Positions 13,436-20,447 of a stretch of DNA of 64,000 nucleotides are shown piece by piece (within the stretch, counting starts at the first letter, position 1; every line of letters starts with the position of its first letter). The notes beneath the pieces are model-generated. The model was given only the letters and a program-made list of their open reading frames with translations, was not told where the DNA came from and ran no database searches. This stretch comes from an uncultured virus (IMG/VR IMGVR_UViG_3300013741_000003) (taxonomy: Duplodnaviria; Heunggongvirae; Uroviricota; Caudoviricetes), in the IMG/VR virus record IMGVR_UViG_3300013741_000003. One strand, written 5' to 3'. A program made the position numbers and the translations under genes.

Positions 13436-14800
13436 TTAGTTTGAATATGGATCAGCACTTGCCCAAGAACTATTATCTGTTGCTGATGTTTGAACTGGAC
13501 TTTCGTATACAGGCTCATGGCTAGGGCTTACTGTCTGGTTGAATACATTATTATCTTCAACAACGCTTGCTTGATGATTAATAACTTCTTTTTCCACCTC
13601 TACAGGAGCTACAAAATTTTCTTGCTCTACTTCCTTATCAGGAACATATAGATAACCTGAAAGATCATTTGCTTTTCCTACATTAGAACAAAAATCAAAA
13701 GAGCTATCCAATGTAAATCCTGCTCCAAGAGCGGAGCCTACCTGATTTGTATGCCAGTTACCAATAAAGTTATCACCATCTTGAACCATTTCAAGGCTTG
13801 TAGAACTACCATTTTCAGACACAAATGAAACATTCAGTTTACCTAATTCATCAGGAACAATAATGTTTTTCTCACCTGTTTGTGTTCTTAACTCACATGA
13901 ATTAGTTGCTGTATCAAACTTCAATACACCGATTTCATTAGTTTTATCTACGTCATCAAAAAGTTTGACAGTGTAACCCTCTGGATTATGACGTACTTCA
14001 CTCGAAGCTACATTTTCAAAACCAGAAATATTATGGATATTATCATCAATGATACGTTGATTAATATTATCACCTAAATCATTAAAGTATAAGAACCACG
14101 CAAGAGTAGAATGTGGTCTAAACATTAATGCCAACTCTGGATTATAAAAAGCTAGTAGGTCATTTAGTGGATCAGTGTCAAAATTATTCCTCTGACTAAC
14201 TACATTTTTTTGAGAAACTTTAGTAATAATCTTCTGTTTTTGCTGTTCTTTTTCTTTCAGAACTTTAACTTTGTTTGAAAGATTTACTTCTTCTTGTTGC
14301 ATTTTGAAGTAAAAATCTTGTACATTTTTTACCTGATAATCAGAAACATCTTCCAAGAAGAACATAAACGATGAATGTTTAACTTCAACTTTAAAAGATT
14401 TACCACTTTGAGAAAGAATAGATACTAATGTTTTAAAATCTTTATCTTTAATAATGAAAGCTGTTTCATCATTTACCAATACTTGATCACAAGCAATAAC
14501 AATAGTATTAGCTACAATAAAGCTATTATTGATACCGTTTTCTGTAAAATCATTAAACGCATTCTTATATTGTGTTTTATCTTTTTCGATATCTTTAAAG
14601 GTTTCTTTAAGTAAGTCTCTATTAAGATTAAAAGACATTACCTTAGCCATACAGCTATATTCTAAAGAACTCTTGCTTAGTTTTAATGGGATTGCCACAG
14701 GAATTTTTGAAAGCAATGTTTTTCCTTGCTCATCAATAACACTTAACTTACCTGCTTTATTCACTTTACCATTATGTTTAATTACTACGGTTAGAGTCAT
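13436..14800 (-). CDS. hypothetical protein
   Basis: 454-aa ORF with low-complexity C-terminus. Confidence 0.75.
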   Translation of the reverse strand: MTLTVVIKHNGKVNKAGKLSVIDEQGKTLLSKIPVAIPLKLSKSSLEYSCMAKVMSFNLNRDLLKETFKDIEKDKTQYKNAFNDFTENGINNSFIVANTIVIACDQVLVNDETAFIIKDKDFKTLVSILSQSGKSFKVEVKHSSFMFFLEDVSDYQVKNVQDFYFKMQQEEVNLSNKVKVLKEKEQQKQKIITKVSQKNVVSQRNNFDTDPLNDLLAFYNPELALMFRPHSTLAWFLYFNDLGDNINQRIIDDNIHNISGFENVASSEVRHNPEGYTVKLFDDVDKTNEIGVLKFDTATNSCELRTQTGEKNIIVPDELGKLNVSFVSENGSSTSLEMVQDGDNFIGNWHTNQVGSALGAGFTLDSSFDFCSNVGKANDLSGYLYVPDKEVEQENFVAPVEVEKEVINHQASVVEDNNVFNQTVSPSHEPVYESPVQTSATDNSSWASADPYSN

Positions 14801-14887
14801 TATTTTTACCTTTTTAGATTAATGTTGAGCTATTATACATATTGTTGTTATCTCTTGCAATCTATTTATTTACGTAAAAAAGAGAGC

Positions 14888-15127
14888 CTAAGCTCTCTCT
14901 GTTTTAATATTTCCACATTTATTTATTTGCTCAATTATTCTTTCTTGAGTTAATGGATTGCTTAGATCAAGCTTAACAATACCATCTTTATTAATTGTAT
15001 AAGTCCCTTGATTTTCTTTTAAAGCTTTAAACAGTCGTTGTTCATTATAACTTCTTGGGGAATCTTTTTTTGATAAAAACTTTTTTATTCGATGTAGAGT
15101 GATTTTCTTCATTTTAAAACCTCTCAT
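14888..15127 (-). CDS. small hypothetical protein ending in TAG
   Basis: ORF directly downstream of the RNA island; start likely MKKITL. Confidence 0.55.
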   Translation of the reverse strand: MRGFKMKKITLHRIKKFLSKKDSPRSYNEQRLFKALKENQGTYTINKDGIVKLDLSNPLTQERIIEQINKCGNIKTERA

Positions 15128-15136
15128 AGTTTGAGG

Positions 15137-15237
15137 TGGTGGTTGCCGCAGGATTTGAACCTGCCCTTAACAGCCTACACAATAGGGTATTGCTACCTGT
15201 TTTATCGCCTGTCATAGTGTCCAGCTATCCAACAACC
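15137..15237 (-). ncRNA. anticodon-less tRNA-like RNA with encoded CCA
   Basis: GGTTGTT/GGCAACC-A-CCA acceptor; GCAGG-TTCAAAT-CCTGC T-arm; ATAG/CTAT D-like arm; extended arm capped by GGTA-GCAA-TACC. Confidence 0.75.
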
Positions 15238-15346
15238 AATGGTCCGGGTTATAGTCATCCCCGGTTTCGCTTGTTCCAGACTAATGCCCCATGTTGGCAG
15301 GAGCTACACAAACATTTTTAAACATTTTAAAAAATCCTATTAGTTT

Positions 15347-15461
15347 ATAAAATTTTACGATTCGTCGTAGAGTGTGCTTTTCTTTGTAATCTTTTGTTCG
15401 CTTTTGTGATTACCAAATACTTGCCTCAGTCATTTACGATAGCGCGTTAACGCCAACTTAT
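15347..15461 (-). ncRNA. unknown structured RNA, copy 1
   Basis: homologous to 15500-15630 with compensatory stem changes. Confidence 0.65.
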
Positions 15462-15499
15462 TTTTATCTAACTATTAATTTATTTAAATATTCAAATTA

Positions 15500-15630
15500 G
15501 AGGAAGCTTCACGATTCGTCGCAAAATCCGTCAGGGCCAGTCCCTTTTCTCAGTCATTTTTTGTTCGCTTTATAATGACCTGATACTAAATAAACAAGAT
15601 TTTTTACACGATGGTATAACCAACTTCCTC
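15500..15630 (-). ncRNA. unknown structured RNA, copy 2
   Basis: GAGGAAG/CTTCCTC closing stem; GTCATT-[ATAAAGCGAACAAAA]-AATGAC hairpin; CGA-CGAA-TCG hairpin. Confidence 0.65.
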
Positions 15631-15648
15631 TTTTCTACTTCATTTTTA

Positions 15649-16236
15649 CCTTAAAGTCGTAGATGTTCCTTTAAGATATTTCAAGTTACAAGTGGTAGGG
15701 GCTAATTCTCCTACTTAACTGCCGTTTATGGAGACGCTTACGAGTTGCAAATTCGTTTTGCGGATAACAATATCAACAGCATCATGTCTGCTCAACCATA
15801 CCGTATTAGCTTACGGATTCACTTGGCTCTGAGAGCTTATATCACATATACCAGAAATAGTTACATATAATAAAGCTAACAGAAATCGGGAACAAGGAAC
15901 CACCCTATACTTCCCTAATAAATTTTTCAACCACGGCTTGAAGTGGGCCTTTATCTTGTGGCTATAGCTTATAGCATCTGGTGGTTAGCCATAGCTACGT
16001 TCTTCTCTTAGTTTTAAGCATTTGGAGATTGCTCGACGGCACTCGAATAAACACTCTAAACTAACTGTAACCATCTGACTAAGTTAACGGTGAAGGTTGT
16101 CACCTACTGGTTCAAGCTGCCAGTCAACATTCGCATTCCTTCTCGTCTTCAGCGAACTTATACCCGTCTGTCTTTTTGGAACTCAAACCAGACAGAAAAA
16201 TGAAGATATAACAGCATCAGTCTCACCTGTTATTCT
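15649..16236 (-). ncRNA. large ornate ncRNA candidate (~590 nt; ROOL-like in size and context, family unverified)
   Basis: no credible ORF, many hairpins, two 7-bp loop-loop complementarities, directly 3' of tRNA-Leu. Confidence 0.55.
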
Positions 16237-16244
16237 TTTGAGTT

Positions 16245-16329
16245 TGGTACTCCGGGTCGGACTCGAACCGACAAACCTTGCGGCGTTAGGACCTAAACCT
16301 AATGCGGTTACCAATTTCGCCACCGGAGC
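16245..16329 (-). tRNA. tRNA-Leu(TAG)
   Basis: full cloverleaf, TTAGG-TT-TAG-GT-CCTAA, long variable arm, ACCA end. Confidence 0.95.
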
Positions 16330-16384
16330 ATTGCGGAAAACACTGCCTATCTCTGATAGGGATGTATATTAGTCTTTTCCTATG

Positions 16385-16448
16385 ATTAGTTTATGTAGGG
16401 ACTTGAACCCCAGCGCTACTTAAAGCACTCCGTCACGCCCTAACCAAT
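16385..16448 (-). ncRNA. minimal or degenerate tRNA-like element
   Basis: TGGGG-TTCAAGT-CCCTA T-arm within ATTGGTT/AACTAAT stem; begins at predicted transcription start. Confidence 0.4.
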
Positions 16449-16454
16449 GAAAAC

Positions 16455-16483
16455 ATTATAGCTAAAACTTTTATGAAAAACAA
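16455..16483 (-). promoter_or_regulatory. sigma70-like promoter for the left half of the RNA island
   Basis: TTGTTT-N17-TATAAT. Confidence 0.65.
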
Positions 16484-16559
16484 CTCTTTTTTCTTTCTTT
16501 TTTTAATTATTATCATGAATTTAGGTGTTACAATACTTGTTATAGCTGGATATTTTTAT

Positions 16560-16889
16560 TTAATATATTTCTAATGGTTTTATTACTCTTGGATACATCA
16601 AAACAGTTATATTTTTCTCTATCGTTTTATTTATAAAATCTCTAACATCTTTATTTGATAGACTTAAAAGATGGACATAATTATCATACTTTTCTATTTT
16701 ATCGTCTTTTAATGTTATTATTTTCATATCATGATATGTATCTACATTATATCCAGTGATCATAAAATAAAACGTATCCTCTTTCTCATTAAAAAATGAA
16801 AAAGTAATAATTTCGCCATTCTTTTTATTTAATTCTTTTTTTACAATCTCTTTTTTACTTTCAAGCTCTAAAATATTTAAAATAGTCAT
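16560..16889 (-). CDS. hypothetical protein inside the RNA island
   Basis: 109-aa AT-rich ORF with AGGAG SD. Confidence 0.6.
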   Translation of the reverse strand: MTILNILELESKKEIVKKELNKKNGEIITFSFFNEKEDTFYFMITGYNVDTYHDMKIITLKDDKIEKYDNYVHLLSLSNKDVRDFINKTIEKNITVLMYPRVIKPLEIY

Positions 16890-16993
16890 ACACTCACTCT
16901 CCTTTTTTAGAATAAAACACTATTCTTATTAAAAAGTAAAATCTATTTTAATTTATAATGAAGGGAATTTTAAGTGAAATAAAGGGTAGAGGT

Positions 16994-17086
16994 GATTGTA
17001 AAAGCGTTGGATTCGAACCATTAATGCCTGATCAAGGGCAACACTCCCGTAGGTCTGGACCATCTTAACTTACAACTTTTACAATC
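16994..17086 (-). ncRNA. tRNA-like RNA with 11-bp terminal stem
   Basis: GATTGTAAAAG/CTTTTACAATC perfect stem, TGG-TTCGAAT-CCA T-loop, followed by ACCT. Confidence 0.55.
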
Positions 17087-17161
17087 TTTTTAGTGGGAGC
17101 TTCTGATCAGAAGCAGCTACGGGCATCCCACAAAACAACTGATTAACGTCTATGTATTTGT

Positions 17162-17193
17162 AAAATAAAACTCCTTTCCAATTAGAAAAGGAG
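17162..17193 (-). terminator. intrinsic terminator of large ncRNA
   Basis: CTCCTTT..AAAGGAG hairpin then TTTTATTTT. Confidence 0.7.
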
Positions 17194-17945
17194 CCGATAT
17201 TGCCTTCTACACCGGTTTGAAGACAACCTGCCTTTTCCTACTTCGCAATCCAGCCCTAATAGGCTAACAGGCTGGCGCTAAGCCTTCAGTCCGGCTAAGA
17301 CATCCTCTTTTCTTGTTATTCCATAGCGAGTAACCTTTCTATGGCAAGAGTGTCGATTTAAAGAAGCAAGACACTATACCTCCTTTTGAAAAGATGGGGA
17401 GTCTCACCCCAACTTTGTTATTGATTACGTCAAGCGCTATAGCAATCAACCTGCATTCAGATAATATTCGCTTATAACCTTTTATGCTACAGTTATAAGC
17501 TATACTCATTAATTTACACTTATAGTGAGTACCCTATAAGCGAGTGCTAGTTTAAAGAACAGCACTAATTCTTGAATAACTCCCGTCGAAACGACAGTAT
17601 CCCTATCATTTGCCCATAATGAATGATTATCTTTAAACAAGAATCCTTTTGGATCGAGCAAAGCGTACACATTCGGGCTATCAAGTTGGACGGCTGAGAA
17701 ACTTCACTTTGGAAAAGCTATCCCGCAGATATTTCTAACGCAAGGACCACAACTTAAATTTTGTGGCGTTCGAGGAAGTTTGAGGCTTTAAATATCTCAA
17801 ACACTCAGCGATTTCTCTCGTTTTTATAAAAATGCCCCTGATCGCAACATCAGGTATTTTTGATTAGTAAATCCAATTACTTTGGAAGAAATCTGATTTA
17901 CCTACATGCCAGATTCTAAAACTGGCCCCATCTAGACATTAGCTT
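17194..17945 (-). ncRNA. large ornate ncRNA candidate (~750 nt; GOLLD-like in size and context, family unverified)
   Basis: ORF-free and hairpin-dense, GTGAGA-loop hairpin, two TTTAAA-core long-range pairings; 5' boundary approximate. Confidence 0.55.
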
Positions 17946-18082
17946 TAAGTTTCCCGTTCCCGTCTATTTTATTTAGAAACGTAACTTTTTGTTTGCTGTT
18001 CCACCAGCTACCAGAACATTTAACTGGCAATTAGGTTGGAGTCATCGCTCCTTAGTCAGAAACTGAACACGCGAACGCATTC

Positions 18083-18175
18083 TTGTATCAGCATCAGGAT
18101 TTGAACCTGACTGGTGTAAGGTTTACGCTCCTGATTACTCGGAGAACGCCTCACTGGTTCCAACAACTGCTGATA
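18083..18175 (-). ncRNA. anticodon-less tRNA-like RNA
   Basis: ATCAGCA/TGCTGAT-A-CAA acceptor; TCAGG-TTCAAAT-CCTGA T-arm; extended GTGAGG/CCTTAC + CTCC/GGAG arm. Confidence 0.65.
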
Positions 18176-18189
18176 TTTTTTAATTTAAA

Positions 18190-18399
18190 ACTATTCAAGC
18201 TTTGTTAACATATAGGTAGTTTAGTCATCGTATCACGCAATAATACTTATAATCTTCTCAGCAGAGGCGAATCCGCGTCAATGAAGGGCTACCAGTTAAC
18301 TCTATCTCACGTATTTCGACAGAACATGCTGCTCTGCTAATCGCTTGACTCTAATCAGTTTACGAGACTGATGTTAAAACGAGGGTGCTCTTGAATAGC
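18190..18399 (-). ncRNA. unknown ~210-nt structured RNA
   Basis: GCTATTCAAG/CTTGAATAGT closing stem; nested TTAACAT/ATGTTAA, AGCAGAG/CTCTGCT and ATCAGT/ACTGAT helices. Confidence 0.55.
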
Positions 18400-18447
18400 T
18401 TTTTAATACCTTACTTCTTTTTGATAATAGTATTAGCTACTAATATC

Positions 18448-18593
18448 TGGTGTCGTTTCAGGAATCGAACCTGAGACTTGAAGAACTACTATCCGCGCTA
18501 TAACACTCAGCCAACTCTCCTTTCGGGACAGTGCAGGAATTAAACCTACGTTTTCGGACTACGCCTTCTGTTTTACCACTAAACTAATACGAC
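18448..18593 (-). ncRNA. double-tRNA: tRNA body whose anticodon loop is replaced by a circularly permuted second tRNA body
   Basis: outer D, anticodon stem, T and ACCA intact; the insert has T-arm, loop-closed acceptor and D-arm in permuted order. Confidence 0.8.
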
Positions 18594-18797
18594 ATTGTTT
18601 TGAGAGCTTATGATTATTCCTCTCTCGCCTTTAAACAAAACACCCACGAAACGCAGTATGCCTTATCCTAATCACTCGCCCTACGGCATCGCAGAGCGGT
18701 CAGGTTTTCTATTTTATTAAAGGAGGCTTCAAAGTTCTGCTCTTTACAGACAATGTAGTGGAATTTCATTACTACTCATTGCCGCCTCAAGAACTAC

Positions 18798-18826
18798 ATC
18801 TTACCAAAACCCAAACTCATAATCAA
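18798..18826 (-). promoter_or_regulatory. internal promoter of the RNA island
   Basis: TTGATT-N17-TAAGAT with extended TG; GTAGTTCTTGA immediately downstream, also seen after the TG-n-TATATT at ~19102. Confidence 0.55.
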
Positions 18827-18855
18827 CTACTTTTTTACTATTTTCTTATTTTTTA

Positions 18856-19048
18856 GGATGGCTGGCACTGATCTCCAGCTTGTCTATAACACCTGCTAGT
18901 TAACACCGGAGTCTCACCGGGGCGAAGATTTCACAGGAGCTTTATTGGGACAGTGCTGGATTACAACGTGCTTACTTAACCGATTACATCCAGCGATATC
19001 TACTTCCCATCAGGTCTTACACTTTCCCGTCAGTCCGGGACTTCATCC
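18856..19048 (-). ncRNA. manA-like structured RNA (193 nt)
   Basis: GGATG/CATCC closing stem; 5' CCCG-GACTGA-CGGG loop complementary to 3' GCTGG-AGATCAGTG-CCAGC loop; CCGG-TGAGACT-CCGG hairpin; family call from recall. Confidence 0.55.
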
Positions 19049-19172
19049 ACTTAATAATAAAAAGCTAGAGTTTTAACCAGTCTTCTTTGCTTCAAGAACT
19101 ACAATATACCAACTTCACTGCTTAAACCCCGGAAGTCACCCTAGATGTACCCCGGAAGTTAAATACATAATT

Positions 19173-19257
19173 TGGTGCTCCAAGAGGGACTTGAACCCTC
19201 ACACCTTTCGGTAACAGATTTTGAGTCTGCCGCGTCTACCGATTCCACCATCAGAGC
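19173..19257 (-). tRNA. tRNA-Leu(CAA)
   Basis: full cloverleaf, GCAGA-CT-CAA-AA-TCTGT, long variable arm, ACCA end. Confidence 0.95.
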
Positions 19258-19261
19258 AATA

Positions 19262-19411
19262 TGGCAGGAGTAGAGGGATCGAACCTCACTTGATAAATAA
19301 CATTATTGAGAGCGACTCAACATTGTTCTTTATTCATAGACCAAAGGATACCTACCTTCCACATTAACTTCACCAGCGCTAGCTAAGAAAATGTGTGCCT
19401 ATGCTTCTCCT
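19262..19411 (-). ncRNA. 150-nt anticodon-less tRNA-like RNA with encoded CCA
   Basis: AGGAGAA/TACTCCT-G-CCA acceptor; GAGG-TTCGATC-CCTC T-arm; two large inserted helical domains. Confidence 0.7.
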
Positions 19412-19416
19412 ATTCT

Positions 19417-19490
19417 TGGTGTCAATGGAGGGAATCGAACCCACATCCAGAGTTTTAGAGACTCCTGCTCTACCGTTAAGCTACAAAGAC
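19417..19490 (-). tRNA. amber suppressor tRNA (anticodon CTA)
   Basis: cloverleaf with GGAGT-CT-CTA-AA-ACTCT, normal D-arm, TTCGATT loop and ACCA; two T-T mismatches in acceptor, one in T-stem. Confidence 0.8.
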
Positions 19491-19503
19491 ACGTTTTACT
19501 TGT

Positions 19504-19545
19504 CACTACAGAAATGATTCTAGCAAAACACTATCTGTAGTGCAA
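19504..19545 (-). promoter_or_regulatory. promoter of the RNA island with overlapping inverted repeat
   Basis: TTGCAC-N17-TAGAAT; CACTACAGA/TCTGTAGTG at 19504-19512 and 19534-19542. Confidence 0.65.
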
Positions 19546-19553
19546 GAACTTTT

Positions 19554-19964
19554 TCAATTATCCTTTTTATATACAGCAATTGTATTTTCTAAACTATAAT
19601 TTTCTTTATATTTTTTAGATAAATACTCCATAAAACCTTTATTAATTTCTCTATTGTCGTTACGGTTTTCAACGTTATACCAACAATTTTCTAAATTATT
19701 TTCGAAAAAAATCCATTCTGTTTCTTTTATCATTAATCCCAATAACATTTTATTTAAAGAACTTTCTGCTTTTTCCATAGTTACTGTACACAACATTGGA
19801 TCAGCAATATATAGGGTTTCTTCTTCTGAAGCTTTGAAAGCATTTAACTTGTCAATATTTAAAGAAAAATCATCAATGACAAAACCTTTTTTTATTTTTG
19901 ATAATAAAGTTGTTTTCCCTGATCCGGGTAAACCAACATAGAAAACAACTTTAATATTTCTCAT
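19554..19964 (-). CDS. small P-loop kinase (AAA_33/PNK kinase-like)
   Basis: GLPGSGKT Walker A, VIDD, lid-like NVENR. Confidence 0.7.
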   Translation of the reverse strand: MRNIKVVFYVGLPGSGKTTLLSKIKKGFVIDDFSLNIDKLNAFKASEEETLYIADPMLCTVTMEKAESSLNKMLLGLMIKETEWIFFENNLENCWYNVENRNDNREINKGFMEYLSKKYKENYSLENTIAVYKKDN

Positions 19965-19976
19965 ATTAAACCCTTT

Positions 19977-20354
19977 TTATTCTGGTATAATTTCTTTTAA
20001 ACCATCAAACAGATTTTGAGTATTCAACTTTTTAATCATATAATCAGTGGAGTTACCATAATATTCATAATTAGTTTTTTCACTGATATCCCATAATGAT
20101 TTCTGCTCAAGCTTTTTAAATTGTAAAAATGTTAAGTTTGGACAAACCATTTCAAGTAATTCAATAAATACCATTGGATCTTCTGGCTCTGGTTCGGCTG
20201 AAACTGAATGATGATGATCTGCATTCCAACAAGAACCTCCTTCTTGACCACCTACGACCCATTTTTTGGAAATTGGAAAGATTTTCTTTTTAAATTCTTT
20301 TTCTATAGCTTCTTCAAACTGTTTTACATTTTTAAACTCATGAATACTAATCAT
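19977..20354 (-). CDS. phage hypothetical protein
   Basis: W..GGQEGGSCW and EYYGN motifs. Confidence 0.7.
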   Translation of the reverse strand: MISIHEFKNVKQFEEAIEKEFKKKIFPISKKWVVGGQEGGSCWNADHHHSVSAEPEPEDPMVFIELLEMVCPNLTFLQFKKLEQKSLWDISEKTNYEYYGNSTDYMIKKLNTQNLFDGLKEIIPE

Positions 20355-20447
20355 TTATTTTTCCTCAAAATCAGATTTTATTAGCTATCTCTATAAAACC
20401 ACTATAGCTGATTCTATTATTATGCACAACTCTTTTTATGCTATTTC

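Follow-up and report, generated by a model that had tools for sequence, protein, structure and literature searches.

Does the 146-nt locus at 18593-18448 on the minus strand of the window (the whole stretch of viral DNA analysed, 64,000 nucleotides) encode one RNA made of two nested tRNA bodies, and if so, what might a phage do with it? The original prediction described a double tRNA, and every segment it listed could be located at these positions. The gene (18448..18593, minus strand, as are all features of the RNA given below) encodes its own CCA end, and its product is a CCA-ended tRNA shell in which a circularly permuted, loop-closed tRNA body replaces the anticodon loop. In the shell, the 5′ acceptor strand (18587..18593) pairs with 18457-18452, the D arm (18570..18584) has 4 bp and a canonical loop with G18 and G19, the 5′ strand of the anticodon-type stem (18564..18568) forms five of five pairs with 18484-18480, and the T arm (18458..18474) has 5 bp and a canonical loop. 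The 3′ acceptor strand, the discriminator A and CCA occupy 18448..18457. The description of this outer part as a near-normal tRNA stood for its D and T loops and its CCA end, whereas the acceptor, taken to be one nucleotide short on its 3′ side, is better represented by 6 bp and a single bulged A. The 69-nt inner body (18491..18559) runs in the order anticodon-type stem, variable loop, T arm, loop-closed acceptor stem and D arm, which is that of the YrlA effector domain. Its T arm (18533..18549) has 5 bp, its acceptor stem (18514..18532) forms six of seven pairs and is closed by a 5-nt loop, and its D arm (18497..18511) has 4 bp; the two T-arm loops of the element begin at 18544 and 18469. Both anticodon loops give way to one internal loop with a 4-nt side (18560..18563) and a purine-rich 6-nt side (18485..18490), which contains no U33; the RNA has no anticodon, as had been proposed. 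The outer elbow is canonical, while the inner elbow has U in place of both G19 and C56; only the nested reading makes these two altered loops partners of each other.

The minimum free energy structure, computed without constraints, was exactly the nested double cloverleaf (−35.5 kcal/mol), although this energy is ordinary for the composition (z −0.67; 48 of 200 shuffles were as stable). The same linear sequence also reads as two tRNA-like units, and the locus could accordingly be two decayed tandem tRNA genes that cross-pair by accident, a view with which the z-score, the loss of G19 and C56 from the inner body and a lineage of one relative with two changes would agree. Nested and tandem registers differ in the two acceptor stems and the two anticodon-type stems, 24 pairs in all. 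With equal freedom to shift, the nested register gave the window RNA 21 of these 24 pairs, and the tandem register 12. Strand shuffles gave a mean of 13.4 pairs, which the tandem register does not exceed, and reached 21 in 5 of 200,000 cases. Together with the covariation and recurrence of the nested design described below, and with the scores of ordinary tandem tRNAs of T4 on model R1 (46-52 bits, against 84 for the nested RNA of Xanthomonas phage RTH11), this largely refutes decayed tandem genes, which we consider very unlikely. The nested fold at the window element is confirmed.

Compared with the tRNA family (RF00005), the RNA has an acceptor stem, discriminator and CCA (6 bp with the bulge, then A and CCA) and D and T loops capable of forming elbows, canonical in the outer body and missing G19 and C56 in the inner one; it has no 7-nt anticodon loop with U33. 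The outer body resembles a canonical class I tRNA in its acceptor, D arm, 5-nt variable loop, T arm, Levitt pair, discriminator and CCA, and the RNA departs from such a tRNA in its missing anticodon loop, its 69-nt inserted second body and its bulged 6-bp acceptor. ARAGORN run on the window did not call the element as a tRNA, the Rfam scan gave a partial tRNA match of 23.7 bits (cut-off 29), and neither a tmRNA call nor a tag frame was obtained at the element. On model R1, which was built partly from this RNA, it scored 97 bits.

The original prediction had allowed that the insert might be spliced out to leave an ordinary tRNA. Excision in the style of a bulge-helix-bulge intron or of a permuted gene could yield one or two ordinary tRNAs, and the inner body has a permuted tRNA order; in algae and Thermofilum, tRNA genes of this kind, whose 3′ half likewise precedes the 5′ half and is joined to it across the acceptor stem, mature through a circular intermediate (PMC3978253). 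However, the junction here is a 4 × 6 internal loop rather than the two 3-nt bulges around a 4-bp helix given in that text (PMC3978253), and positions 32-33 are not pyrimidine-U in either body. Ten unpaired bases are present where two loops need 14, and fewer than seven are spare in 21 of 30 members of the class. RtcB was found in none of five records, and no Rfam intron family matched at the element. The nested RNA also differs from the algal and Thermofilum genes in having no recoverable anticodon, in being embedded in a second tRNA and in its bacterial-virus setting. With no U33, no bulge-helix-bulge and too few spare bases, a splicing precursor appears extremely unlikely.

The window has a G+C content of 29.7% and most of its genes belong to no known family. 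The element lies in a 4.3-kb cluster of structured non-coding elements on the minus strand (15136..19490) that contains tRNA-Leu(UAG), tRNA-Leu(CAA), a suppressor tRNA with a CUA anticodon and five or more further tRNA-like elements with a T arm. Five such elements, at 19260-19407, 18085-18175, 16998-17082, 16395-16445 and 15136-15240 on the minus strand, have non-standard bodies; two have a CCA end, and none was called by ARAGORN or by Rfam at its cut-off. Suppressor-type tRNAs with a CUA anticodon were observed at 19417-19490 of the window and at L165 8815-8889, whereas TAG closes only one of 46 long stop-free runs in the window; recoding is a candidate reading only. A loose, weak sigma-70-like promoter candidate (18798..18826, minus strand) may lie about 200 nt upstream of the element; it is one of five loose matches in 14.5-20 kb and 27 on the whole minus strand, and a stricter promoter scan did not recover it. 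Placement within this cluster would suit an RNA that serves as a processing signal only, its two tRNA-shaped folds directing RNase P and 3′ nucleases and thereby freeing neighbouring RNAs from the cluster transcript, and tRNA-like processing signals are known (10.1101/312249). A single tRNA body would suffice for this, however, which leaves the kept inner body and the long connecting helix unexplained, and some phages keep two or three nested RNAs in a row beside ordinary tRNAs. We regard a role confined to processing as distinctly improbable.

Exact and blastn searches with the window RNA recovered record G001/G002 as its sole relative. G002 is a virus record of 341,648 bases that is 99% identical to the window over 14800-20400. 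Its RNA differs at 2 of 146 bases, both compatible with the structure: a G.U pair of the inner T stem becomes A-U, and one base changes in the closing loop of the inner acceptor. Rfam gave 37 tRNA matches in G002 (E up to 0.001), and many repeats of tRNA-Met(CAU), tRNA-Leu(UAA) and tRNA-Arg(UCU), not a full set, were observed (L162, L165, L502, L503). The record also holds two further tRNA shells (L502 4299-4429 and L162 5007-5125), one with a multi-hairpin insert replacing the anticodon loop and one with a very long variable arm, as well as a HEARO RNA (136 bits) and an sroH match (91 bits) at L504 16926-17185 and 8997-9136. A 1.74-kb insertion with an RRXRR-HNH (IscB-like) gene (L156 5810-7310) is present in G002 and absent from the window at ~19118-19160, where a short direct repeat marks the site.

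Recurrence of the architecture was examined by a pattern scan (a D-loop motif, a shortened distance to the T loop and a second T loop) of viral, GTDB and metagenome collections. Viral contigs, metagenome contigs and RTH11 together yielded at least 35 nested RNAs, three of them doubtful (L099, L436 and L190:2795-2921), which fall into about 19 sequence clusters. The curated set comprises 32 hand-picked members, which with the RTH11 RNA and a degenerate copy make 34 in 19 clusters at 70% identity, and L612 in addition. Among the 370 distinct matches listed, 23 had a 7-bp acceptor without mismatch, formed by the first strand with the one that follows the second T arm, and these were distributed, among the matches listed, as 12 of 149 viral, 11 of 103 metagenome and none of 118 GTDB matches; the window RNA is outside the 23 because its acceptor is bulged. 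A perfect 5-bp anticodon-type cross stem, a helix outside the selection, occurred in 15 of these 23 and in 3 of 117 tandem-acceptor matches among those listed, a difference that kinship among matches inflates. The nested register beat the tandem register in all 30 parsable sequences of the 32 members (mean 21.2 against 13.4), a comparison in which the inner D arm was set by hand in five and the outer acceptor had also served as a selection filter. The outer acceptor, itself a selection filter, formed seven of seven pairs in 24 of the 30 scored members, whereas the inner acceptor was highly variable and frequently had fewer than 7 bp, a contrast that processing of the outer end alone would be expected to produce. 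Other loci that passed the filter, among them L004, L014, L041, L059, L092, L115, L174, L339, L379, L447, L471 and L561, were judged by eye to be tandem or chance matches and dropped, and a match in Gordonia phage Sixama proved to be a tandem tRNA array.

The nested RNAs of the carriers sit in clusters of tRNAs or tRNA-like elements, and their connector strands are similar in length throughout the class (15-20 and 17-26 nt). Pfam searches of neighbouring genes revealed no common family (6 of 44 proteins scored above cut-off, all different), and the discriminator and first acceptor pairs vary freely, with no acceptor identity in common. These results indicate that it is the shape that is kept, rather than a partner gene or an amino acid. 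Since there are 19 clusters and none of the others exceeds 62% identity with the window RNA, the class may represent several independent inventions with differing jobs. Two clear nested double tRNAs lie side by side in one phage (L190 1344-1477, 1484-1628, 1651-1806 and 2795-2921; L180), which also has a degenerate third copy and a tRNA shell with a three-hairpin insert. In the L188, L461 and L476 family, one half of the nested RNA nearly duplicates the other, and this suggests an origin by tandem duplication followed by strand swapping. Head-to-tail chains of anticodon-less tRNA-like units were observed in Bacteroidota (L268, L277, L255, L257, L265, L318 and L341); each unit has a D arm, a T arm and a loop-closed acceptor hairpin, and those scanned gave no YrlA match at the cut-off.

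The original prediction had proposed covariation in homologs as a check. Nested helices do covary, in other families of the same design, the window family having one relative with two compatible changes. In a family of nine members (alignment A3), RNAalifold predicted the nested helices unaided. Over the 43 nested pairs of the structure, 96.6% of cells paired, against 41-59% in slid controls, and two-sided changes occurred in 25 of the 43 pairs, a level reached in none of 500 shuffles; every nested helix of the family covaried. Such changes affected seven of seven pairs of the outer acceptor, 7 of 11 of the connector and seven of nine of the inner acceptor, whereas the tandem acceptors of the same family showed 47.6% and 57.1% pairing and zero two-sided changes. 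In the trio L180, L190 and L612, two-sided changes were present in the outer acceptor, the outer connector and the inner acceptor; RNAalifold mispaired the inner D arm of this trio, and for the pair L020 and L202 it recovered the outer acceptor and not the inner body. In addition, among 13 sequences whose bodies differ at position 15 or 48, the Levitt pair was better in the nested register in nine, better in the tandem register in one and tied in three, with an automatic parse that is unreliable for some sequences. L218, L392, L180, L190, L203 and L455 have two canonical Levitt pairs when nested and zero in tandem. That the Levitt pairs follow the nested register supports two real elbows. Folding energies of the whole against the halves were left unused because the whole is never less stable. 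On the evidence of these alignments, the nested architecture is under structural selection in phages.

The class is also present in a cultured phage. RTH11 (OQ790161.1 75849-75998) carries an unannotated, CCA-ended nested RNA of 150 nt, which surfaced through a partial blastn match of a fifth member used as query; four other members, compared by blastn with 50,697 annotated phages, had produced no match over their full length. The RTH11 RNA, which lies outside model R1, scored 83.8 bits on it, compared with 46-56 bits for tandem tRNA pairs. Directly upstream, a second unannotated CCA-ended tRNA shell (L510 1396-1533) contains an inner T arm and a long hairpin. The inner body of the RTH11 nested RNA shares ~80% identity with YrlA-like RNAs from phages Tabio and Gurke, which score 52.1 and 31.4 bits (YrlA cut-off 69) and lie ~0.5 kb upstream of Ro60 genes, so that one lineage at least resembles a YrlA-type domain transferred to a tRNA shell. 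Unannotated YrlA-like RNAs of Tabio and Gurke were observed at L514 2481-2583 and 2947-3055 and at L515 1996-2065 and 2453-2551. The inner body of the window RNA does not particularly resemble the RNAs of either Tabio or Gurke.

The comparison of the insert with the tRNA-like module of YrlA was thus supported, as both have a T arm, a loop-closed acceptor and a D arm in the same order. In PMC4201824 and 10.1101/312249, YrlA (RF02553) is likewise a permuted body on an anticodon-type stem without an anticodon loop, and is found in phages. It differs in its Ro60-binding stem and 5′ motif, in place of which the nested RNA has a complete second tRNA body and a free CCA end. The GNCGAAN0-1G motif is absent from the window RNA, and the 32 members yielded two chance matches, both in the 3′ part and none near the 5′ end; the long Ro60-binding end stem is also absent, as the ends of the window RNA form a tRNA acceptor with CCA. 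YrlA genes are expected to have a Ro60 gene within ~4 kb on the same strand, and the TROVE gene of G002 lies 58 kb from the RNA. The Rfam YrlA model did not match the G002 copy of the element at E values of 0.1 or less (gathering score 69 bits). Membership in YrlA was rejected on four counts: 5′ motif, Ro60 stem, gene neighbourhood and Rfam score.

A looser kinship would make the RNA a tether of YrlA type, holding one protein on each tRNA body, with the outer tRNA replacing the Ro60-binding handle or with the RNA partnering a phage Ro60. The YrlA order and closed acceptor of the inner body, the likeness of the RTH11 inner body to RNAs upstream of Ro60 genes and the similar connector lengths across the class would all fit, and the near-identical phage G002 encodes a 559-aa TROVE/Ro60 protein (L160 820-2499; 42% identical to Bacillus phage G gp540). 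However, TROVE was found in one of 11 carrier records, and in neither RTH11 nor any of the five IMG/VR records that are at least 92% complete. Beside the TROVE gene of G002, no Y RNA or T arm was detected. The distance of that gene, the lack of the 5′ motif in all 32 members and the dissimilarity of the window inner body from the Tabio and Gurke RNAs also count against a tether, which we consider rather unlikely.

Other known RNAs share parts of the design. In engineered tRNA-scaffold chimeras, a cargo RNA replaces the anticodon loop and the tRNA provides processing and stability; the nested RNA differs in being natural and conserved, with a cargo that is itself a tRNA body. T4 species 1 RNA (rnaC, 139 nt) and tmRNA resemble it as stable RNAs with a T arm, a tRNA-like end and no anticodon. 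Identity with species 1 RNA was rejected because rnaC, with its single T arm, reaches 14.9 bits on model R1, and neither rnaC nor rnaD is nested. The architecture is undescribed in the literature searched, which did not extend to subscription journals, and the tables of PMC4201824 may list some of the loci as YrlA candidates; within this scope, the original statement that no described family has this design holds. The architecture is therefore real and structurally selected, made of known parts and fitting no known family.

The CCA end raises the question of a role in carrying amino acids away from the ribosome. A charged CCA end might feed a transferase of the Fem or MprF type, and RNase P might open the inner loop to give a two-piece RNA with two ends; in PMC4201824, RNase P cleaves M. 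smegmatis YrlA, which has a closed acceptor of 7 bp, and the RNA acquires CCA. Five of 33 members, the window RNA among them, encode their CCA. Nevertheless, the window RNA has no G3.U70 and has a bulged 6-bp acceptor, and the inner acceptors of the class often fall short of 7 bp. A FemAB/Acetyltransf_6 protein was found in one of 11 records, 137 kb from its RNA, and not in G002, and LPG synthase was found in none of the 11. The CCA-adding enzyme was present in two of five records, G002 not being one of them. Aminoacylation as a general property is doubtful, given the free variation of the discriminator and first pairs and the few encoded CCA ends, and a general carrier role, as judged from these sequences, is unlikely.

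Since the RNA has no codon pairing and no anticodon loop to cut, its most likely function is, we tentatively suggest, to serve, once processed, as a stable decoy with two elbows for host proteins that hold on to the body of a tRNA. The nested RNA would be transcribed together with the rest of the phage tRNA cluster; its outer body would act as a natural tRNA scaffold from which host RNase P and 3′ trimming release a stable, CCA-ended RNA, and the inner body would provide a sealed second elbow of YrlA type, whose 7-position stem might also be cut, as described for M. smegmatis YrlA in PMC4201824. The product could then act as a two-site competitive ligand that occupies host proteins gripping the tRNA elbow, the T arm or the CCA end, probable targets being stress and defence factors that sense or attack tRNA. 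Several observations count against a decoy. G19-C56 is missing from the inner elbow of the window RNA, so that a two-site action is less convincing in this lineage, and the fold energy is unexceptional. In PMC12445682 and PMC11555353, phage tRNAs defeat tRNA nucleases by replacing the cut tRNA and not by protecting host tRNA; replacement needs an anticodon, and this mode of action speaks against the decoy reading. No precedent for an RNA decoy was found in the literature searched. A broader proposal, which we hold to be possible but doubtful, is that a widespread class, formed by repeated grafting of a YrlA-type domain or a duplicated tRNA into an anticodon loop, acts as an uncleavable two-site inhibitor of host tRNA-directed defence or stress sensing.

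Since these genes are overlooked or wrongly divided by tRNA finders and by Rfam, a conserved class of phage RNA has been invisible inside annotated tRNA clusters. The class shows that anticodon-less tRNA look-alikes in phages are structurally selected and not all pseudogenes. The copy in RTH11, a cultured and deposited phage (OQ790161.1), makes the class testable. The partner of the YrlA effector domain is an open question according to 10.1101/312249, and its link to an RNA that needs no Ro60 offers a simpler bait. If the decoy function is true, it would represent a new mode of counter-defence, as known phage tRNAs act by replacement, and the broader class, if it acts as proposed, would be the RNA counterpart of the DNA-mimic anti-restriction proteins.
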